Shown: in pieces, positions 3,733 through 61,008 of the stretch | Layout of the letters: the number at the start of each line of letters is the position of its first letter | How positions within the stretch are numbered: position 1 is the stretch's first letter | Assembly (NCBI GenBank): GCA_017477845.1 | Contig: JAFUTR010000031.1 | Coordinates: 15,738-79,737, forward strand | Direction: 5' to 3' | Length of the DNA stretch: 64,000 nt | From: Bacilli bacterium | GTDB taxonomy: Bacteria; Bacillota_I; Bacilli_A; RF39; UBA660 | Position numbers and translations under genes: made by a program | Notes under the pieces: model-generated | Told to the model about the DNA's origin: nothing | Database searches by the model: none | The model's input: only the letters and a program-made list of their open reading frames with translations

Positions 3733-4920
3733 TTAAAGCAAATCTTCAAATTCTTTTTTGTCATCTTCAGTAATAGTTATTGTTTTAATATTTTTAAGTG
3801 TCTTATCAATTAATTCTTGATAGTCAAATCTTTCTTCCATTTCAAGACATAAACTTAATTTTGGATTAATTACTGGATGTTTTGGTACAAATACTGTACA
3901 GCAATCTTCATAAGGCAAAATACTTATATTATATGTATCAATTTTTCTAGCTATTTCCATTATCTCAAGTTTATCAAGACATGCAACCGGTCTTACTACA
4001 GGATAATTAGTTACAGAATTAATCACCTTCATACTTGTCAGTGTTTGACTTGCCACTTGTCCAATTGACTCACCATTTACTATTGCAAGACACTTTCTTC
4101 TTTTAGCCATTCTTTCTGCAATTCTGTACATCATTCTTCTCATAATAGTAATTACATAATCTTGATCAGCTGTTTTATATATAGCTTCTTGTATTTCTGT
4201 AAACGGAACTATATGAAGTTTTATACTTGACGTATATATAGACAATTTTTTACATAATTCTATAACTTTATTTCTAGCATTAATACTTGTATGAGGTATA
4301 GCTTCAAAATAAATTGCTTCAATATGAACTCCACGTTTAATAGCAAGATATGCTGCAACTGGAGAATCAATTCCACCACTAAGCATTAACAATCCTTTTC
4401 CTAAAGTATTATTAGGATATCCTCCAAGTCCATAATAATAATTTGTATAAATATATGTAAAATCCTTTCTAATTTCTATATTTACTGTCAAATCCGGATT
4501 ATGTACATCAACATGAATATCATCAATATTTTTAAGTATTAATCCACCAACTTGTCTTGAAAAATCTAAACTTTTAAAAGGAAATTCTTTATAACTTCTT
4601 TTGGTTTCAACTTTAAAAGAATTAAATTTTTCTTCTTTAACAATTTCAATTACTTTAGATTTAATCTCTTCTTCATTTGTATTAACTTTGTATGCTACTA
4701 AATATTCATGAATTCCAAATACTTTATTAATTCTTTCTAATATTTTATCAAGATCATTTTCATCAAATTCAATATACATTCTTGATAAATCTTTATATAT
4801 TTTTACATCATAATTTTTAAGTTTATTCTCTATACTTTTATATAGTAATCCTACAAAGAAATTTCTATTTCCTTTTTTAGTTGTTAATTCACCATATTTT
4901 ATTAATATAACTCTATTCAT
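3733..4920 (-). CDS. thiI: tRNA 4-thiouridine synthase / sulfurtransferase ThiI
   Basis: 395 aa with an N-terminal ferredoxin-like/THUMP region ([12 protein letters not shown]) and the PP-loop [15 protein letters not shown]. Confidence 0.9.
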
Positions 4921-4928
4921 TTTATCAC

Positions 4929-5507
4929 CTACAAAACTTCAATAACAAATAGTTTTTCATCTTCATGTACTAATACTATCTTAACTTCATTTGGATATTC
5001 TAAATCCTTAATATATTTTATTTTAATAGTAACAAAATAGTAATTTCCCTCACTATTGAAATCTACTACTTCGACATCATTAACTTTTGGTAGCACCTGT
5101 TTTCTTTTCCCATTTAAGTTACTTTCTATACTTTTATATATAGTATCTTCTGCTTTTAAAATAAAATTGTCTTTTATATTTGGATGTATAAACATCACTC
5201 CACCAATATCAGTATTAGTTATTTTATCATCTAAAGAATAAAAGTCAATTACAAATAATTTAGAAATAGTTTTTGCATATTCTTCATAATTAACTTCTTT
5301 GCTATTTAATATATTTTTTAACGCCTTAAAGTTACCATTATATAAATCACTTTTATTATTATATAAAGTATAATCATAATCCATAATAGAATCTACAATA
5401 AATACCTCATCAATTTTTTCATTTTTGCTAAAAAAATTATAATAAAGGAGCACTAAGGCTCCTAGTATTAGTAAAATAATTATTATTTTAATACCCTTTT
5501 TGTTCAT
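4929..5507 (-). CDS. hypothetical membrane-anchored protein
   Basis: 192-aa ORF with one N-terminal TM segment (IIIILLILGALVLLYY). I recognise no motif. Confidence 0.45.
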   Translation of the reverse strand: MNKKGIKIIIILLILGALVLLYYNFFSKNEKIDEVFIVDSIMDYDYTLYNNKSDLYNGNFKALKNILNSKEVNYEEYAKTISKLFVIDFYSLDDKITNTDIGGVMFIHPNIKDNFILKAEDTIYKSIESNLNGKRKQVLPKVNDVEVVDFNSEGNYYFVTIKIKYIKDLEYPNEVKIVLVHEDEKLFVIEVL

Positions 5508-35302: not shown

Positions 35303-35376
35303 TGGCAGGGGATGAGAGAATCGAACTCCCAACAGTGGTTTTGGAGACCATTATTATACCATTTAACTAATCCCCT
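35303..35376 (-). tRNA. trnW: tRNA-Trp (anticodon CCA), CCA end encoded
   Basis: Manual cloverleaf: acceptor AGGGGAT/ATCCCCT, anticodon loop CUCCAAA, T arm GGGAG-TTCGATT-CTCTC, discriminator G, 3' CCA. Two hairpins follow at 35221..35290. Confidence 0.9.
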
Positions 35377-46674: not shown

Positions 46675-46744
46675 AACATTTCACCTCTTAAGATATACTT
46701 CCATTTATAATTATATCATTATATGTTAAAAAAAAGAACCGTTA

Positions 46745-49054
46745 CTAACACGATTCTTCAAATACTCCAGTCTTAATTATCTCTTTAATTACTGCAAGCA
46801 TAACATCAACAACAATACTATTACCAGCTTGCTTATATGCCTGAGCACGTGAAACAACAATTTTATAATCATCAGGGAATCCCATCAATCTATGAGCTTC
46901 TCTTTCAGTCAGCATTCTAACTTCTCCTAAATCAGTCATGTAATTGTCAACACCTGCTCTATGTCTATTCCCCATAGTTGATAAAACTGTTCTTGCTATT
47001 TTCCTATCAATTTCAAGTGATGTTTTAAATGTTTTTGTTCCTGAACACATAACATATTTTTTTAACAATGGTGATAATATATATTTTTGGTCAACTACAC
47101 CAGGTTCATTAATTAATTCAATTTCCCCATTTTTTGATAAATAATTTCCCTCTTTTACTTTAGATAAAAGTAGATCTGGTAAATAAAACTTCAATTTTTT
47201 CTTTTTTGGAAATTCAAATTGTTTTTTTAATTTAATATCTTTTCTAAATCCAATCACAAACAGTCTTCTTCTAGTTTGTGGTATTCCATAATCTTCAGCA
47301 TTAAGAATATCTTGATGAATATCGTATCCTAGCTCGTCATATACTTCTTGCATAATTGCCCAAGTTTTTCCTTTATCATGAGTAGTTAATCCTCTTACAT
47401 TTTCATAAATGAAAACTTTAGGGTTTGTCTCTTTAATTATTCTTCCATATTCATAGAATAAAGTACCTCTTGTATCTTCAAGGCCTCCCTGAAACCCTAC
47501 TGTTGAAAAGCTTTGACAAGGGGATCCACCAACAAGTAAATCAACCTTATCTCTATAGTCAGTTCCATCTAATAGATTAATATCTAAGTGGAAATCATTT
47601 TCATTAATATCATAATTAGCCATGTAACTTTCTTTAACATAATTATGCTTTTTACTCTTCGATGAATATAAATTATCTACATATTTTTTCTTTTCTTGCT
47701 TTGTTTTCATTGAACGTATTTTTTTCATCTCTTTATCAGCGTCATATTCAATTTCAATATCTCCATTATCGCAAGCAAAAACCAACTTATAATTAACACC
47801 TAGTCTTTTCAATGCTTGTTCAGGTGATCCAATTCCACTGAACAAAGTTCCTACTCGTAAAATACCGTCGTTTTCAGTATTTACTTCATTTAATGGATTA
47901 TTTTCTCTTTTACTACTATCATGTAATGTTAACAATTTAGTTTCATTAGAAGAATCATCAAAAATATTTAATAGTTGAAGTTCTTTTAAAATTCTCTCAA
48001 ATATATTTACAACAATACTATTCCCTGCTTGTCTATACATTTGTACATCAGGAACTACTATATTAAAATCATCGCTAAATCCCATTAGTCTTAAACATTC
48101 TCTAGGAGTTAGTTTTCTAATCACGCCAGTCTTTCCATTCCATTTAGATAAATAAGCATGCTTCATTATTTCTTCATTGTGTCTTTTATTATCATATTCT
48201 TCAAAAACAAAATCTCCATTCCAATTAAATTGTTGATTTGCTTTTTCACACATAATAATATTTTCGTTTACTCTTGCTCTATTTCTATATTTTGGGTTAG
48301 TAACAAATTCAAACCCTTTTTGTCCTAAATAGTATTTTGGTTCAACTATATCCTCAAGATAATCAAACATAGTAGTTGTTAATTCCTCTTTTTCAGGAAA
48401 TTTGAAATCTCTTTCAAGAGTTATATCTTCCCTAATTCCAACAACAAATAATCTTGGTCTATTTTGAGGTATTCCATAATCTCTAGCATTTAATATAGGA
48501 TCATCGTTAATATAAATTCTATATTTTAATTCTTTAAATACATTTTGAATTGTTTCCCAAGTTTTTCCTTTATCATGATTTAATATTCCTCTAACATTTT
48601 CAAAAATAAAGACTTTAGGTTCACAATCTTTGATTAATCTAGCATATTCATAAAATAAAGTACCTCTTGTATCATTAAATCCCCCTCTTTTACCTATAAT
48701 TGAAAAGCTTTGACAAGGGGATCCACCAACAAGTAAATCTACTTTATTTTTATAATGCTCTCCATCTATAAATCTTATATCTTGGTGAAAATCTTTTTTA
48801 TCTATATCATAGTTAGCCACATATGACTCTTCCATGTAATTTGGTTTTCCTGTATTTGTATATAATTTATCTATAAATTCTTTTGATTCATCATAAGAGA
48901 GTTTTTTAATTTTTTCTTGAATTTCATCTTTAGATTCTTTTAATTCTCTTTCGCCGTTGTCACAAGCAAATACTAATTTATAGTCAATTTTTTGTTTTTT
49001 CATCGCTTCTTCTACAGCGCCAATTCCACTAAACACAGTAGCTAATCGAATCAT
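46745..49054 (-). CDS. fused tandem C5-cytosine DNA methyltransferase (two complete Dcm-type domains in one polypeptide)
   Basis: Every motif occurs twice: FSGIGA/FSGIGS (I), GGSPCQSFS x2 (IV), ENVRG x2 (VI), QNRPRLF/QTRRRLF (VIII), AGNSIVV x2 (X). The domain boundary is near 47.87-47.97 kb. Start set to the ATG at 49054, which follows AGGAGGT. Confidence 0.9.
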   Translation of the reverse strand: MIRLATVFSGIGAVEEAMKKQKIDYKLVFACDNGERELKESKDEIQEKIKKLSYDESKEFIDKLYTNTGKPNYMEESYVANYDIDKKDFHQDIRFIDGEHYKNKVDLLVGGSPCQSFSIIGKRGGFNDTRGTLFYEYARLIKDCEPKVFIFENVRGILNHDKGKTWETIQNVFKELKYRIYINDDPILNARDYGIPQNRPRLFVVGIREDITLERDFKFPEKEELTTTMFDYLEDIVEPKYYLGQKGFEFVTNPKYRNRARVNENIIMCEKANQQFNWNGDFVFEEYDNKRHNEEIMKHAYLSKWNGKTGVIRKLTPRECLRLMGFSDDFNIVVPDVQMYRQAGNSIVVNIFERILKELQLLNIFDDSSNETKLLTLHDSSKRENNPLNEVNTENDGILRVGTLFSGIGSPEQALKRLGVNYKLVFACDNGDIEIEYDADKEMKKIRSMKTKQEKKKYVDNLYSSKSKKHNYVKESYMANYDINENDFHLDINLLDGTDYRDKVDLLVGGSPCQSFSTVGFQGGLEDTRGTLFYEYGRIIKETNPKVFIYENVRGLTTHDKGKTWAIMQEVYDELGYDIHQDILNAEDYGIPQTRRRLFVIGFRKDIKLKKQFEFPKKKKLKFYLPDLLLSKVKEGNYLSKNGEIELINEPGVVDQKYILSPLLKKYVMCSGTKTFKTSLEIDRKIARTVLSTMGNRHRAGVDNYMTDLGEVRMLTEREAHRLMGFPDDYKIVVSRAQAYKQAGNSIVVDVMLAVIKEIIKTGVFEESC

Positions 49055-49149
49055 ACATATACCTCCTATCATTATCATATTACCATTTTAATCACATTTT
49101 GTCTGCATATATCTTAACAAAAAATTGTTATTTTGAACAGACCCAATCA

Positions 49150-49270
49150 TAAAAAATACCAAGAACAACTCTTGGTATAAGTTGCCTCATCATACTGAAA
49201 TTACCACCTAACTTAATAGGTTGGTGCAAGGTTATCGGGTCAGTCCCTATCTTGCTCTATATAAGGTCCT
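49150..49270 (-). promoter_or_regulatory. S-box (SAM-I-like) riboswitch leader with intrinsic terminator, upstream of the methyltransferase/McrBC-like operon
   Basis: The minus strand reads CCUUAUAUAGAGCAAGAUAGGGACUGACCCGAUAACCUUGCACCAACCUAUUAAGUUAGGUGGUAAUUUCAGUAUGAUGAGG. P1 is CCUUAU/AUGAGG and P2 is GCAAG/CUUGC. It is followed by the terminator AUACCAAGA-GUUG-UUCUUGGUAU-U6 (49151..49178). It deviates from the S-box consensus at several positions: UAGGGA for GAGGGA, GACCC for GGCCC, UAA for UGA. Confidence 0.6.
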
Positions 49271-49361
49271 CTTTATTCTTTACATGTATTTATATTGTAA
49301 CATACTTAAATGAAAAAGTCTGCATAAAAAACAATATATTAAAAATAATTCCTATTTTTCT

Positions 49362-49957: not shown

Positions 49958-51388
49958 TTGAATATAGATTATCAAGTTTTAAAGTTTGAAAATAAAATAA
50001 AGCCTAAAGATATTGGTGGTCTTGGAGTCGAATTAGATGCTAGAAAATGATCTGGAAATTATGACAAAGAACGTACTCAATTTAATAAAGAATATGTTGG
50101 ACTTGATGGTCACTCTACTCTCAAAAGTAAAATATATTCAAAAATTTATGACAATAATATTCACTTTAATAAAGGTGAAAAAACAAATATATTGAATGGT
50201 TGTATAGTAACAAGTGGACCAGATTTTTTTAAAAAATTAGGTCTTCCTATGAAAGATTCAGGAAGAGTTTATGGAGAAAAATCAAAGCATCCAAGAGAAA
50301 AAATATATTGTCCTGATATTAAAAGTAAGGATGATATTCCATCAGAAGTATATAGATTTTTCGATGAAAGTTTTAATTTTTTATCTAACTTTGTTGGAAA
50401 AAAAAATGTAGTTTACGCTTCAATTCATATGGATGAAGATACTCCACATATGCACTTTTACTTTTTACCTATTGTTAATTCTATTCAAAGAAAAACATTT
50501 GAAACTGATGAAAATGGTAAAAGAATTATAAAAAAAAACACTAATAAAGATGGTATTGTAAAACAAAATCCTGTACTAAAAAGAAATGAAAAAGGAGACA
50601 TTATTTATACAACTGAGTACGGAAAATTCTTAAATACAGATGAATTTTGGAAACAAAAAGGTGGTAAATTATCTTTTGCTAAAATCCAAGATGAATACAA
50701 TGAATTTATAAAATCTAAAGGATTTGATCTTGATAGAGGCCACGTTGGAACTCATCGAGAACATCAATCTAAATTAGAATATACAATTAAAAACTTACAA
50801 GCTCAGGTCGAAAAGTTAAGTAAAGATGTAGAACTTTATGAAGAAATAAATAGCATTCAACTTGAGACTAATAAAGAAATAATAAACTTAAATACTGAAG
50901 AAGTATTATCCCCTACTAAAGATTTCTTTAACAAATATAAGAATGAAGATGTAGAAAAAATAAAACAATATGCTAAAGAGATCAATAAAGATAATGCTTC
51001 ATATAAATCAAAAATAAAATCTAAAGATGCTAAGATCAATCAACTTGAGTATGAAGTTCGTGAACTTAAAAATATGGATTTATATACTAAAAATTATGAA
51101 CAAATGACTGCTTTAGAAAGTAAAGATAAACAGATAAAAGAACTAACTGAAACAATTAAAAGTAAAGATAAAGAAATAGCATCACTAAAAGGTATTATTG
51201 AAAGAATCATTAAAAAAACATTCTATGTAATACAATATCTTGTTGGTAAAACAAAAGATAAAATAACTGATTTATTTAACTGGGATTCAAAAAATGACTT
51301 TCGAGCTTTTGAAAGTCAATTAGATAGAATGCTTAATAAATATGAAAATAAAAAGATATTACAAAAGACAAAAGCAAAGAATAAATGA
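49958..51388 (+). pseudogene. MobV (Mob_Pre) family relaxase gene with an in-frame TGA at codon 31
   Basis: The AAAGGAG-preceded TTG at 49958 opens a frame that meets TGA at 50048..50050, then continues in the same frame into track ORF 50192..51388. Relaxase motif ASIHMDEDTPHMHFYFLPIV (HxDE..PHxH), plus a long C-terminal coiled coil. Confidence 0.7.
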
Positions 51389-51598: not shown

Positions 51599-53254
51599 AT
51601 GAATTATAGTTACTTATCAAACTTGGATTATAATGCTGGTATTTATATCAGACTTTCACAAGAAGATAAAGATAAGAAATATGAATCTGATAGTGAAAGT
51701 GTATCCAATCAAAAAGAAATTTTAAGAAATTATTGTAAAAATAATGGATTCAATTTAATAGATGAATATGTTGATGATGGCTATTCTGGAACTAATTTTG
51801 ATAGACCTGGATTTATTCAAATGATTGAAGATATTAAAGCAAAAAAGATTAATTTAGTAATTGTTAAAGACTTATCTAGGCTTGGTCGTGATCATGTAAT
51901 GACTGGTTATTATATAGAATCATATTTTCCTGAAAATAATGTAAGATTTATATCTATCGTAGAAAACTATGACAGTGCAAAGGTTCAAGCTAGTAATGAC
52001 TCCTCTACTTTTATAATTGCTTGTAATGATTACTATAGTAAACAAAACTCTTTAAAAATTAGAAATGTTTTAGACTCAAAGAGAAAAGATGGAAAGTTTA
52101 TAGGTAGTAAACCAAGCTATGGTTATATGAGAGATCCAAATGATAAAGGACACCTTATACCTGACCCTGAAGTTAGTAAATACGTTAAATTAATATTTGA
52201 ATGGAGAGCTAATAATATTGGAGTTAGTGAAATAGCAACAAGACTAACTGAGATGGGTGCTCCTACTCCTGCATCATATAAAAATATGCCAAAATCTAGT
52301 AGAGTTATTGAAAAAGATAAATGGACTATTCACTCTGTTCATAACATCTTACAGAATAGAATGTACACTGGAGACATGGTTCAGCATACACAAACCAACA
52401 TAAGTTATAAATCGAAAAAGAAAGTTACTTTAAATGAAAACTTATGGGTAGTTGTTGAAAATACACATGAACCTCTTGTAGATAAAGATACATTTATGCT
52501 TATCAATAAAAAGACTAAAAATAAGAATAGAACTTATCAAAAAAGAGAAAGAAAAGAAAGATTGTTAGAAGGTTTACTCTACTGCAAAGAATGTGGTAAT
52601 AGACTTGGAGTTCTTTATAGAAAAAAACAAGACTATTGGTGTATTAATTGTAATAAATATACAAGAGATCCTGTAAGAAAATTATGCACATCTCACTTTT
52701 TTGCCTACGATTATTTTGAAGAAATAGTCTTAAAAGAAATTAAAAAATTACTATTAGAACTATTTAATGATTTAGACATAAATGAATTAAATAACGAGGT
52801 TTTAATTAGAACTAAAAATAATAGTAATGATTATAAAAAACAAAAAGAAGATATTATTAAAGAACAAAATAAAATACTAGATATGATTAAAACAATTTAT
52901 CAAGATAGATTGGATGGAAATATTACTCCTGAACAGTATAAGTTATTGTCTAAACCATATGATGAAAGATTAAAAGAGTTAAATTCTCAATTAGAAGATA
53001 TAAATATTGAAATAGAAAAAAGAAAGAATAATGCAGATAAACTTCCAAATTACATAAACAAAATAAAAAGGTTGTTAAACTTAGACAACCCAAATAAGGA
53101 ATTATTATTTGCATTAATTGAAAGAATTGAAGCAGATAAAGATAGAAACATCACTATTAAATTTAGATATGACCTACTTGATACTCATACTTTTAAATAT
53201 GAAGATAATAGAGTTCATAATCCTTACGGTAGAAAAGGAAAAGATATGATATAA
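51599..53254 (+). CDS. large serine recombinase of the 17-kb element
   Basis: AGIYIRLSQEDKD (catalytic Ser), VKDLSRLGRD, recombinase domain, zinc ribbon CKECGN ... CINCNK, and a C-terminal coiled coil. 551 aa, ending 580 bp from the right end of the element. Confidence 0.9.
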   Translation: MNYSYLSNLDYNAGIYIRLSQEDKDKKYESDSESVSNQKEILRNYCKNNGFNLIDEYVDDGYSGTNFDRPGFIQMIEDIKAKKINLVIVKDLSRLGRDHVMTGYYIESYFPENNVRFISIVENYDSAKVQASNDSSTFIIACNDYYSKQNSLKIRNVLDSKRKDGKFIGSKPSYGYMRDPNDKGHLIPDPEVSKYVKLIFEWRANNIGVSEIATRLTEMGAPTPASYKNMPKSSRVIEKDKWTIHSVHNILQNRMYTGDMVQHTQTNISYKSKKKVTLNENLWVVVENTHEPLVDKDTFMLINKKTKNKNRTYQKRERKERLLEGLLYCKECGNRLGVLYRKKQDYWCINCNKYTRDPVRKLCTSHFFAYDYFEEIVLKEIKKLLLELFNDLDINELNNEVLIRTKNNSNDYKKQKEDIIKEQNKILDMIKTIYQDRLDGNITPEQYKLLSKPYDERLKELNSQLEDINIEIEKRKNNADKLPNYINKIKRLLNLDNPNKELLFALIERIEADKDRNITIKFRYDLLDTHTFKYEDNRVHNPYGRKGKDMI

Positions 53255-55219: not shown

Positions 55220-55705
55220 ATGGATAAAGATTTTTTAAGAATATTTAACATGTATAAAAATGATATCTATAGATTAGCATATAGTTATACAAAAAACTTT
55301 TCTGATTCTGATGATATAGTTCAAAATGTTTTTATAAAGCTATATAAAAAAGAAAAAATTCTTGAAAAAAGTGATATTGAAATAAAGAAATGGTTAATCA
55401 AAGTAACTATCAATGAATGCAAAACAATATTTTTATCATCATGGAAAAAGAAAATATGTTCTTTAACAGAAAAAGAAGAAAATATTATGAAATCTCAAAG
55501 TAAAGAATATTTTCTACTTGATGAGATAAATAAATTATCTAAGAACGAAAGACTTGTTATATTCTTATATTATTATGAAAACTATAAAATAAAAGAAATA
55601 TCAACTATTATGAAAAAATCAGAAACGAATATTCAAACAATACTTTATAGAGCAAGAAATAAATTAAAGTATATTATAAAGGAGGGAAATTATAATGAAA
55701 AATAA
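55220..55705 (+). CDS. ECF-type sigma-70 family RNA polymerase sigma factor
   Basis: Region 2 (IYRLAYSYTKNFSDSDDIVQNVFIKLY) and region 4 (LSKNERLVIFLYYYENYKIKEISTIMKKSETNIQTILYRARNKL). Confidence 0.8.
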   Translation: MDKDFLRIFNMYKNDIYRLAYSYTKNFSDSDDIVQNVFIKLYKKEKILEKSDIEIKKWLIKVTINECKTIFLSSWKKKICSLTEKEENIMKSQSKEYFLLDEINKLSKNERLVIFLYYYENYKIKEISTIMKKSETNIQTILYRARNKLKYIIKEGNYNEK

Positions 55706-56533: not shown

Positions 56534-57259
56534 CTATAGTTTAATTTTTTTTAAAACTTTAACCAAATCATCATTTATAACTAAATTAGCAAATCTATCA
56601 TAAGAAGTTCTATCCTTGTTTATTATTACAAGATACCTCCCTCTAAAGTAATCTATAAGTCCTGCTGCTGGATAAACAACCAAGGAAGAGCCTAATACTA
56701 ATAACATATCTGCTTTACTAATTACTTCTATAGATTTCTTTAAAACCATTTCTGGAAGTGCCTCTCCATATAACACAACATCTGGTTTAATGATTCCACC
56801 ACAAGTACACCTTGGAACGCCACTAGACTAAAAAACATATTTATAATCATATTCTTTTAAACAATCAACACAATGATTTTTATAAGTTGTACCATGTAAC
56901 TCATAAACATTTTTACTACCTGCTAAAGAATGTAGTCCATCTATATTCTGAGTAACAATAGCTTTTAACTTTCCTATATCTTCTAATTTTTTTAAAAACA
57001 TATGAACATAATTAGGTTTAACATTTTTTATTGAAAAGTTTTTTCTATAAAACTTATAAAAATCGTCTGTATCATTATAGAAATAATCATGACTTAGCAA
57101 AACTTCCATAGGAATATCAGATTCTTTAGATAATCCATATACTCCTCTAAAATCCTTTATACCACTAGCAGTAGAAACTCCTGCTCCTGTAAGTACCACA
57201 ATGTTTTTAGCTTCATCAATCATTTTTTGTATTTTTTTTACATTATCCAATTTTTTCAT
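56534..57259 (-). pseudogene. Sir2-family NAD-dependent deacylase gene with an in-frame TAG
   Basis: Track ORFs 56828..57259 (LTGAGVSTASGIKDFRG ... VTQNIDGLH ... HCVDC) and 56534..56776 (VVYPAAGL ...) are in the same frame. They are separated only by TAG (56828..56830); the 17 intervening codons read SSGVPRCTCGGIIKPDV, the second zinc-ribbon CxxC. Confidence 0.8.
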
Positions 57260-57689
57260 TTATCTGTTCCAATCCAACTTTATCAGTTTTTTTTACATTA
57301 AGTATTTCTGAATTCATAAAAATAGATTTTATATTATCTTTTATCATATTATTCTTTATCTTAAAAATCATTTCATAATTATCTCCAACGGTTACCGAGT
57401 TAAACCTTTTTTTCTCAACCTTTACAGTTTCAATCTCTTCTTTTTGAAATTCTCTAATAGTAATATACATATATCTATTATCATAACTAAATGCTATATT
57501 ATTAACATTATATGTTCTAGTAAATATCTTTCCAATTAAATCAGCTCTATCTTTTTCATGTTTTTTATTATGATTGTCAACATTCACTAAAACATAATCA
57601 TTATTTTTGTTAGTTGAGTTTGTAAAAATCACAAACACAAAAAATAATAAAAAAATAAATATTAACAAAGATACAATATTTTTTTTCAT
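57243..57689 (-). CDS. hypothetical membrane-anchored protein
   Basis: ORF with an N-terminal TM. No motif recognised. Confidence 0.4.
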   Translation of the reverse strand: MKKNIVSLLIFIFLLFFVFVIFTNSTNKNNDYVLVNVDNHNKKHEKDRADLIGKIFTRTYNVNNIAFSYDNRYMYITIREFQKEEIETVKVEKKRFNSVTVGDNYEMIFKIKNNMIKDNIKSIFMNSEILNVKKTDKVGLEQINEKIG

Positions 57690-57775
57690 AAAAAACACAC
57701 CCTTTATAACATTATTATATAAAAAAATACTGATAAATAAAAGAAAAACACATAAGAATGCTTTTCTTTAATATA

Positions 57776-60082: not shown

Positions 60083-60865
60083 TTAATATAATCCCCATTC
60101 AGCTAATTTTTCAAAACCACCAATTTTATTAATATATTCTTTTGCTATTTCAACAATTTCTTCATATGGTTTGCCATCAATTAATTCATCTCCTATTGCA
60201 CAACTTAATTTAACGGTCTTTTTTGTTTTTTGTGCTTTAAGAAAAGCATAAATATTAATTGATACATCAGCCTTGGATAAGTCTTTTCCATGAAGTCCAC
60301 CACCCGTAATAGACTCAGCCATATCAGAACCAAGTTTTCTATTAGTAAGACCTGAATCAGTATTAATACCACCAGTCCAATAACCTAAAGGATTAATTAT
60401 GGCATTAGGATACAATTTAAGTAATTCCTCACGTTTAGCATTACTCTGGCATATAACTAATTTATCACCATCTAAAATATATTTTCCATCATAGGGAAAC
60501 TTACTATATATTTCTCTTGCAATCAAACTAATCTTTCTATCCTCTTCTTTTAATGGTACTCCTTTAAAAATACCATTATCTCCACATCTTATTTTTCCTA
60601 TTTGATTAGATGCTAAAATAGAATCTTGTAAAACAACTAATAAATCAAGTTTTACATCACCAACAATTCTTTTAACAATATTAAATACTTCTTTTCTGGT
60701 AAATTTTTCACTAGACTCAATGATAACATGACAATTACCATGTCCTAACATAACTTCAACTGCAATTTTCGGTTTATCATTTTTTTTATAAGATAAATCA
60801 ACTAATGCACCTGCAACTCTATCTGCTATTTTATCTGGATGAGCAGGATTTACTTTTTCAATCAT
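60083..60865 (-). CDS. compact (260-aa) S-adenosylmethionine synthetase-like protein
   Basis: MetK signature blocks in the correct order but in a much shorter protein: NPAHPDKIADRVAGALVD (GHPDK block), CGDNGIFKG (GDQG block), INPLGYWTGGINTDSGLTNRKLGSD ... TGGGLHGKDLSKADVS (GRKIIVDTYGG / GGGAFSGKD..KVDRS blocks). Preceded by an S-box leader. Confidence 0.65.
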   Translation of the reverse strand: MIEKVNPAHPDKIADRVAGALVDLSYKKNDKPKIAVEVMLGHGNCHVIIESSEKFTRKEVFNIVKRIVGDVKLDLLVVLQDSILASNQIGKIRCGDNGIFKGVPLKEEDRKISLIAREIYSKFPYDGKYILDGDKLVICQSNAKREELLKLYPNAIINPLGYWTGGINTDSGLTNRKLGSDMAESITGGGLHGKDLSKADVSINIYAFLKAQKTKKTVKLSCAIGDELIDGKPYEEIVEIAKEYINKIGGFEKLAEWGLY

Positions 60866-60887
60866 AAAAATTCCTTTCTACATCCTA

Positions 60888-61008
60888 TAAAAAAATACTC
60901 AAGATAACCTTGAGTATAAAGTTATCCTATAGATCTAGCATTACCACCTAATTTAATAAGTTGGTGTGACTTCATCGGGCTAGTCCCTCCATCACTCTTT
61001 ATAAGATG
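60888..61008 (-). promoter_or_regulatory. S-box (SAM-I) riboswitch leader with intrinsic terminator, upstream of the MetK-like gene
   Basis: The minus strand reads CUUAUAAAGAGUGAUGGAGGGACUAGCCCGAUGAAGUCACACCAACUUAUUAAAUUAGGUGGUAAUGCUAGAUCUAUAGG. P1 is CUUAUA/UAUAGG. It is followed by the terminator AUACUCAAG-GUUAU-CUUGAGUAU-U7 (60889..60917). It matches the S-box core AGAG..GAGGGA..GCCCGAUGA..GGUG.UAA. Confidence 0.8.

Follow-up and report, generated by a model that had tools for sequence, protein, structure and literature searches.

A P4-less S-box leader linked to a LlaJI-like DNA methyltransferase gene on a mobile element of a gut Bacillota lineage

Introduction

Can a riboswitch for S-adenosylmethionine (SAM) be placed in the service of a DNA methyltransferase? 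The question is raised by a stretch of 64,000 nucleotides (nt) from a Bacilli bacterium (contig JAFUTR010000031.1; hereafter, the window), in which a leader of the S-box, or SAM-I, type lies on the minus strand upstream of a gene for a fused double 5-methylcytosine (m5C) DNA methyltransferase, followed by genes for McrB-like and McrC-like proteins. Sulfur and methionine metabolism is the textbook domain of SAM-clan riboswitches, and the known means of regulating restriction-modification (R-M) systems include C-proteins, autorepression by the methylase, and antisense RNA. A full-text search of the literature turned up no R-M system or DNA methyltransferase described as being under riboswitch control, and no S-box described in front of a DNA methyltransferase gene or an McrBC module, in agreement with an earlier note made from this sequence alone. 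Our best explanation of the locus, to which we assign a probability of about 0.6, is that an S-box with its origin among the housekeeping S-boxes of this AT-rich lineage of gut Bacillota was recruited, along with a duplicate of the methylase's own promoter, to a position upstream of a LlaJI-like methylase on a mobile element, where it would gate read-through from the extra upstream promoter.

Results

A P4-less SAM-I aptamer lies upstream of the methylase gene

The Rfam SAM-I model RF00162 matches the minus strand of the window at 49184–49267 over its full length, with 45.6 bits versus a gathering score of 44.4 (E = 3.2e-07 when the entire window is searched and 1.3e-09 for the local region). 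In a clan comparison at E ≤ 10, RF00162 was the top match, with a single overlapping clan match of lower score suppressed; the SAM-IV (RF00634) and SAM-I/IV (RF01725) models fit no better than SAM-I, and no 3′ P4/PK-2 is present, the 3′ end of the aptamer running straight into the antiterminator. With R1, a covariance model derived from the lineage's own S-boxes, the window copy scores 91.6 bits. The low RF00162 score is mainly due to the absence of P4, for which 18 model positions are deleted in this aptamer, in the window's second S-box (60924–61007, 60.2 bits), and in all 120 loci of a metagenome scan described below. Natural SAM-I aptamers without P4 are documented and can respond to SAM (PMC12714719). 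Helices P1, P2, and P3 and the conserved core are present in the window copy, with the Rfam consensus core positions matched, and 49184–49267 is a genuine member of the SAM-I class, of a P4-less subtype. The earlier note had identified an S-box on the methylase strand and proposed the covariance-model search as its check, and the identification stands.

The structure, consisting of helices P1, P2a, P2b, and P3 and a pseudoknot between the P2 loop and junction J3/4, was evaluated on an alignment of 34 distinct S-boxes of the lineage. Pairing holds in 99.8% of cells, and seven pairs are changed on both sides, two of them in the pseudoknot. The observed percentage paired and the covariation score were reached by none of 500 shuffles, and slid controls pair at 30–48%. 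Compensatory changes are seen in helix P1, P2, the pseudoknot, the terminator, and the antiterminator. The pseudoknot reads CUAG/CUAG in the housekeeping subtype and CUGA/UCAG here, so that two of its four pairs switch on both sides. The GACCC motif, which the earlier note had counted among the deviations of the core, is therefore compensated and no defect: the loop CUGA covaries with UCAG in J3/4, and the pseudoknot is kept.

The gene downstream of the leader carries two methylase modules, with PF00145 matching twice (E = 7.8e-144) and TIGR00675 (dcm) matching as well. Its true start is the ATG at 49054, since homologues begin with MIRLATVF, and the U-tract of the leader ends ~96 nt before it, close to the 95 nt originally noted. 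Two m5C methylase modules and, in the same orientation, McrB-like and McrC-like subunits make up a layout of the LlaJI type. The modules are fused in the window and split into M1 and M2 in the relatives L146, L013, and L200 (comparison loci are designated by L and a number). The McrB-like and McrC-like proteins score 299 bits with NF008457 (McrB) and 285 bits with NF007277 (McrC), each below the equivalog cut-off, and are the predicted restriction half of a LlaJI-like system. The cassette resides on a mobile element, with a Mob_Pre relaxase gene at 50192–51388 and a serine recombinase gene at 51599–53254 whose product is 81% identical to that of L079.

The leader subtype is linked to homologous methylases

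The same leader subtype is found before homologous m5C methylases at L078/L079, L192, L146, L200/L202, and L201, and partially at L211. All the leaders of this subtype that were found lie 140–150 nt upstream of a homologous methylase, at protein identities of 66% to 89%. In L078 and L079, two metagenome contigs with methylases 89% and 86% identical to that of the window, the same leader sits at the same place and scores 53.1 bits with RF00162; the scores for L192 and L146 are 54.0 and 52.9 bits. A pattern scan of metagenome contigs returned 120 loci, 118 of which belong to the housekeeping subtype (P2 loop ACUAG, as in 60924–61007). The remaining two, L146 and L192, have the loop ACUGA and the P1 strand CCUUAU of the window leader, and both precede a methylase, 66–68% identical to that of the window in L146 and 88% in L192. 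Look-ups with the L146 M1 methylase added intact leaders at L200, L201, and L202, a partial one at a contig edge (L211), and decayed ones at L203/L204, and the tally of the subtype thus mixes two scan loci with copies from methylase-based look-ups. These observations support a specific and repeated linkage of the S-box subtype to LlaJI-like methylases. The leader is also more conserved than the coding sequence, with a mean column identity of 80% in a four-leader alignment versus ~66% protein identity between the window and L146.

Directly upstream of the leader or methylase, most relatives carry an HNH_2 nuclease gene (L079, at 4470–5381, L078, L146, L192, L200, L203, L018, and L210), whose product has weak similarity to a phosphorothioated-DNA-binding restriction endonuclease. 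A tblastn search found no HNH_2 remnant upstream of the window leader, and the homology of the window to the HNH_2-bearing relatives begins at 49284.

A terminator and an antiterminator compete with helix P1

Downstream of the aptamer, the expression platform consists of a terminator and an antiterminator that competes with helix P1, as in the SAM-I class. The strong intrinsic terminator described in the earlier note was detected independently by a terminator scan, which found three terminator-like sites in the region versus 0.4 expected, and the leader terminator stem covaries from ACC/GGU to GUC/GAC in L146 and L200. In the conserved antiterminator, GAGG(A)CAACUU, formed by the end of the P1 3′ strand and the next bases, pairs with GAGUUGUUCUU, formed by the terminator loop and the start of the 3′ arm. 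This pairing comprises 10–11 base pairs (bp) at about −7 to −10.5 kcal/mol in L079, L192, L146, L201, and the second S-box of the window, and covaries from CAAC/GUUG to UAAC/GUUA. The window leader has a 1-nt deletion (GAGG-CAAC versus GAGGACAAC) that leaves an 8-bp antiterminator and reduces the overlap with the P1 3′ strand from 4 to 2 nt; the helix also overlaps the terminator loop and 3′ arm.

Judged from its sequence, the platform is a classical S-box OFF design. The OFF layout proposed in the earlier note is retained in this form, with a different pairing: the AUGAG/CUUAU helix named there is possible but weak and, when checked by hand against the leader alignment (A3), is not conserved in L192 or L146, and the conserved antiterminator is GGCAACUU/GAGUUGUU. 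A second register, GUAUGA/UUAUAC, was rejected on the same alignment, being weak and unconserved in the same two relatives.

Promoter-like modules flank the leader and set the nuclease genes apart

A predicted promoter, P1, lies upstream of the S-box, with a predicted start near 49287. Its pattern, GCAGAC(A)-N17-TGnTAnAAT, also precedes the S-box in L079, L192, L146, L200, L201, and L203. On the other side of the leader, 3′ of the terminator, the four leaders of alignment A3 share an invariant block, GGTCTGTTCAAA...TTTGTTA...GCAGACAA-N17-TGnTAnnAT, followed by the ribosome-binding site (RBS). In three relatives that have no S-box, namely L018 (Clostridium sp. CAG:524), L210, and L207, the identical block stands between a plain terminator and the methylase as the sole promoter-like element there; L013 and L001 have a simpler form. 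This block, P2, is most likely the native methylase promoter. Because promoter P2 lies downstream of the riboswitch terminator, the S-box would gate only read-through from the extra upstream promoter P1, and, with promoter copies on both sides, it sits between two copies of one promoter type. We rejected an origin by insertion of the R-M cassette behind a pre-existing metabolic S-box, because the leader travels with the cassette across upstream contexts and promoter P1 carries the cassette's own GCAGAC motif.

Promoter P1, the S-box, and the terminator could alternatively make up a stand-alone RNA of ~135 nt, serving as a trans-acting small RNA (sRNA) or as a conditional insulator against read-through from the upstream HNH gene. 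The Listeria SAM riboswitches SreA and SreB, which are trans-acting sRNAs, are the model for such a role, and an element with its own promoter and an efficient predicted terminator directly upstream of another promoter would suit it, as would the plain terminator found at this position after the HNH_2 gene in L018 and L210. However, a conserved antiterminator overlapping helix P1 would be pointless unless read-through mattered, no candidate for a trans target emerged, and the window keeps its leader though the HNH_2 gene is absent. We hold a stand-alone RNA to be quite improbable and favor a leader that gates read-through into the methylase gene.

The methylase unit appears to end before the nuclease genes. 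An intrinsic terminator over the methylase stop codon is conserved in L079, L192, and L018; in L146 its stem has another sequence that still pairs. A TGnTATAAT element stands before the McrB-like gene at the same place in L079, L192, L146, and L018. With a conserved terminator and an apparent promoter of their own, the McrB-like and McrC-like genes would therefore form a separate transcription unit that is not behind the riboswitch. This changes the picture drawn in the earlier note, in which the switch was placed before the whole R-M operon. A fully functional SAM-OFF riboswitch acting as the main control of all three genes would couple both modification and restriction to SAM, and the S-box does lie upstream of, and on the same strand as, all of them, with terminator and antiterminator present. 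Against such control stand the promoter-like module 3′ of the riboswitch terminator, the terminator and promoter between methylase and McrB, both conserved, and the lesion in the window aptamer described below, and we regard it as very unlikely. The guard circuit suggested in the earlier note, which would derepress the nuclease upon SAM depletion, loses its basis with the nuclease outside the switch; the architecture agrees better with the alternative suggested there, that methylation capacity is compensated at low SAM.

In nine relatives (L018, L021, L026, L043, L046, L002, L024, L031, and L037), the pentamer CAGAC/GTCTG lies in the methylase promoter, at the −35 position or close to it, and in the window it lies at 49101, 49138, and 49318. 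A CCGGA-like motif takes its place in a clade of ~50% identity (L010, L011, L067). The pentamer has 14 sites in the window, where base composition predicts ~35. In LlaJI, two recognition sites lie within the promoter as part of its transcriptional regulation (PMC1459862), and CAGAC/GTCTG is plausibly a candidate recognition sequence of the R-M system used for LlaJI-style autoregulation.

The window copy carries a lesion in the kink-turn

The tandem G·A/A·G feature of the kink-turn (K-turn) in P2 fails in the window copy. L079 and L192 have the canonical GA/UGA, and L146 has the U2n/U3n form, which is tolerated. In the window, A (49233) replaces G at position 1b and U (49249) replaces G at position 2n. 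A G at 1b is found in 76 of 77 distinct S-boxes of the lineage, the window copy being the sole exception; U at 2n also occurs in L146 and L121. In the SAM-I riboswitch of T. tengcongensis, mutations that break the 1b·1n pair (A1nC, A1nU) abolish SAM binding, and G2nA and G2nU+G3nU are tolerated with dissociation constants of 0.31 and 1.95 µM, respectively (PMC3651934). SAM sensing by the window copy is therefore doubtful. To be set on the other side are the absence of G1b→A from the mutants assayed in that study and the finding of another study that other kinks (pk-turn) can replace the K-turn in SAM-I (PMC3672288).

It is somewhat doubtful that the window aptamer retains useful SAM binding; sensing is probably weakened or lost, leaving the leader as a partly constitutive attenuator. 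The caveat in the earlier note that ligand binding might be altered or lost holds in substance, by way of the K-turn change G1b→A plus G2n→U and not by way of GACCC.

A proposed route to extra methylase mRNA at low SAM

In the mechanism we propose, transcripts from promoter P1 would run into the aptamer. With SAM bound, helix P1 would be locked and the antiterminator blocked, and transcription would stop at 49156–49151, leaving the methylase to be transcribed from promoter P2 only. With SAM scarce, GAGG(A)CAACUU would pair with GAGUUGUUCUU and pre-empt the terminator, and read-through would pass promoter P2 into the methylase gene. Low SAM would then yield extra methylase mRNA at an unchanged nuclease level, because the methylase unit closes with a terminator and McrBC appears to be transcribed from a promoter of its own. 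The rationale would be that compensating methylation capacity when the methyl donor is low guards against self-restriction. We suggest tentatively that the intact forms (L079, L192, L146/L200, L201) are the first natural riboswitch-controlled R-M component, in which low SAM, through starvation or a phage SAM-degrading enzyme, would selectively boost the methyltransferase and not the McrBC-like nuclease, atop a duplicated, methylation-sensitive promoter.

Several points weigh against this explanation. S-boxes are found in none of 77 species-representative genomes with homologous methylases, within 4 kb of the gene, in a search that combined a regular-expression scan, nhmmer/blastn with the leader, and model R1 on all 77 loci, and Rfam on the 14 closest; a pattern scan of viral contigs also gave no matches. 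The search for S-boxes beside PF00145 genes that the earlier note had proposed is positive at the six further loci described above and negative in this set. S-boxes are also absent from L013, L001, L205, and L210, whose methylases are 81–85% identical. In L203/L204, with an M1 methylase 91% identical to that of L146, the aptamer (L203 2301–2377, L204 247–323) has decayed to 27 bits with the lineage model, with mutated core motifs, a 5-nt deletion, and loss of the pseudoknot partner; promoter P1, the antiterminator, and the terminator are still intact there. From the patchy presence, this decay, and the window lesion, selection on the S-box is weak or host-dependent, and the arrangement of S-box and methylase is evolutionarily labile. 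Only ~5 distinct intact sequences are known, all from closely related cassettes, and some of the conservation may reflect common descent or recent recombination. The activity of all three promoters (P1, P2, and that of McrB) is predicted from sequence, and promoter P2 could leave the contribution of the S-box small.

The same observations would suit a relic, that is, a housekeeping S-box captured once by recombination, of no regulatory benefit and in neutral decay, which in the window would be a leaky terminator or spacer before the real promoter; the plain terminator alone at the same place in S-box-less relatives would fit as well. This is unlikely given that intact copies persist down to 66% methylase identity, that compensatory changes are found in helix P2 and the pseudoknot as well as in the antiterminator and the terminator, that a dedicated promoter P1 is conserved, and that the leader exceeds the coding sequence in conservation. 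Recruitment of the S-box with a promoter copy, gating read-through from promoter P1, remains our preferred explanation.

Features of the locus and its surroundings

Table 1. Coordinates of the leader, its platform, and the genes and control elements of the R-M cassette in the window.
Feature	Position	Strand	Elements	Basis
P4-less SAM-I (S-box) aptamer	49184..49267	-		RF00162 and R1 scores, lineage alignment
Helix P1	49266-49261 / 49190-49185	-	CCUUAU/AUGAGG	sequence and RF00162 match
Helix P2a	49256-49252 / 49230-49226	-	GCAAG/CUUGC	sequence and RF00162 match
Helix P2b	49247-49245 / 49239-49237	-	GGG/CCC	
Degenerate K-turn in P2	49231..49250	-	A-U-A (3n, 2n, 1n; 49250-49248); GAU-A-A-C (L1-L3, 1b, 2b, 3b; 49236-49231)	
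Helix P3	49225-49203	-	CCAACCUA/UAGGUGG	
Pseudoknot (P2 loop:J3/4)	49243-49240 / 49198-49195	-	CUGA/UCAG	lineage alignment
Antiterminator	49164..49186	-	GGCAACUU (49186-49179) / GAGUUGUU (49171-49164)	constrained and snapshot folds
Leader intrinsic terminator	49151..49178	-	AUACCAAGA-GUUGU-UCUUGGUAU + U6 (U-tract 49156-49151)	terminator scan, fold -10.2 kcal/mol
Upstream promoter P1 (predicted)	49294..49323	-	GCAGAC 49323-49318 at -35, 17-nt spacer, TG 49302-49301, TACAAT -10 49299-49294	sequence
Likely native methylase promoter/operator P2 (predicted)	49077..49143	-	GGTCTG 49143-49138, TTTGTTA, GCAGACA 49106-49100 at -35, 17-nt spacer, TGG, TAATAT -10 49082-49077	leader alignment and S-box-less relatives
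RBS and fused double m5C DNA methyltransferase gene	46745..49067	-	AGGAGG (49067-49062); 769 amino acids (aa), ATG 49054, stop 46745	
Intrinsic terminator over methylase stop codon	46733..46759	-	GAAGAAUCG...CGGUUCUU + U8	terminator scan, fold -10.6 kcal/mol
Extended -10 promoter before McrB (predicted)	46710..46718	-	TGATATAAT	conservation
McrB-like GTPase/AAA_5 gene	46674-44110	-		PF07728
McrC-like nuclease gene	44117-43047	-		PF10117

The housekeeping S-boxes, comprising the 118 scan loci (in L080-L199) and 60924–61007, are 84–85 nt long and lack P4; nearly all have one P3 stem, with a varying loop. They precede open reading frames (ORFs) of about 80, 250–270, and 340 aa. The copy in the window lies before a 260-aa ORF, in the region 60083–61007 (minus strand), and next comes a gene for an acyltransferase_3 protein of 744 aa. 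The 260-aa ORF matches the N-terminal domain of SAM synthetase only (PF00438, 40 bits; TIGR01034, 48 bits, where the cut-off is 309); it may encode a MetK-like protein of short length. Its combination with a housekeeping S-box recurs in at least 12 metagenome loci.

Elsewhere in the window, a 143-aa ORF with a SIR2-family domain overlaps a 151-aa ORF at 56828–57698 (minus strand), and the two may be a frameshifted or split SIR2-type gene. Near them, on the opposite strand, are an ORF with sigma-70 regions 2 and 4 (55220–55705) and a 251-aa ORF. A tRNA gene lies at 35306–35376 (minus strand). The window has 25.5% G+C, with 15.2% C and 10.3% G on the plus strand.

Discussion

A SAM riboswitch on a DNA methyltransferase gene would, if true, directly link cofactor supply to epigenetic self-protection, and would suggest a way, open to test, in which R-M systems escape autoimmunity under SAM depletion, whether caused by phage SAM-degrading enzymes or otherwise. 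The locus documents the capture of a riboswitch by a mobile defence cassette and the duplication of a promoter around the captured element, and its close relatives display stages of riboswitch decay: intact, lesioned, and pseudo-aptamer. The window itself gives a more sober view, with the nuclease off the switch, a methylase with an apparent promoter of its own, and an S-box copy that is probably impaired.

With Bacillus subtilis SAM-I riboswitches (yitJ, metI) and the metF-H2 leader of T. tengcongensis, the window leader shares the P1-P2-P3 core with its AGAG/AGGGA/CCC/CAAC/GGUG..AAU nucleotides, the pseudoknot between the P2 loop and J3/4, and an OFF platform whose antiterminator uses the P1 3′ strand. 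It differs from them in lacking P4, a known natural variation (PMC12714719) that is lineage-wide here. It further differs in the gene it would control, an R-M DNA cytosine methyltransferase instead of one for methionine, cysteine, or SAM metabolism or transport, in its position upstream of a second promoter, and, in the window copy, in the broken 1b·1n pair of the K-turn.

The R-M cassette has its counterparts in LlaJI of Lactococcus lactis plasmid pNP40 and in the related BsuMI of B. subtilis, which likewise have two m5C modules and then McrB-like and McrC-like subunits. In BsuMI, M and R are transcribed as separate units, which resembles the layout that we infer here. With LlaJI, the cassette also has in common short asymmetric motifs repeated in the methylase promoter region. 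A riboswitch is not mentioned for LlaJI (PMC1459862), whereas here an S-box and a duplicated promoter are added upstream of the methylase.

The nearest likeness is to the window's own housekeeping S-box and its 118 counterparts in gut and rumen metagenomes. Both subtypes have a length of 84 nt, the absence of P4, and the antiterminator design in common; P3 is almost the same, with a difference in a single pair and a single loop base, and the GGUGGUAAU junction segment is identical. The housekeeping copy has AUCUUAU/AUAAGAU in helix P1, CUAG/CUAG in the pseudoknot, and a canonical K-turn, where the methylase-linked leader of the window has CCUUAU/AUGAGG and CUGA/UCAG. The housekeeping S-boxes precede metabolic or unclassified genes (ORFs of 260, 270, and 340 aa) and not methylases, in contrast to the leader described here.

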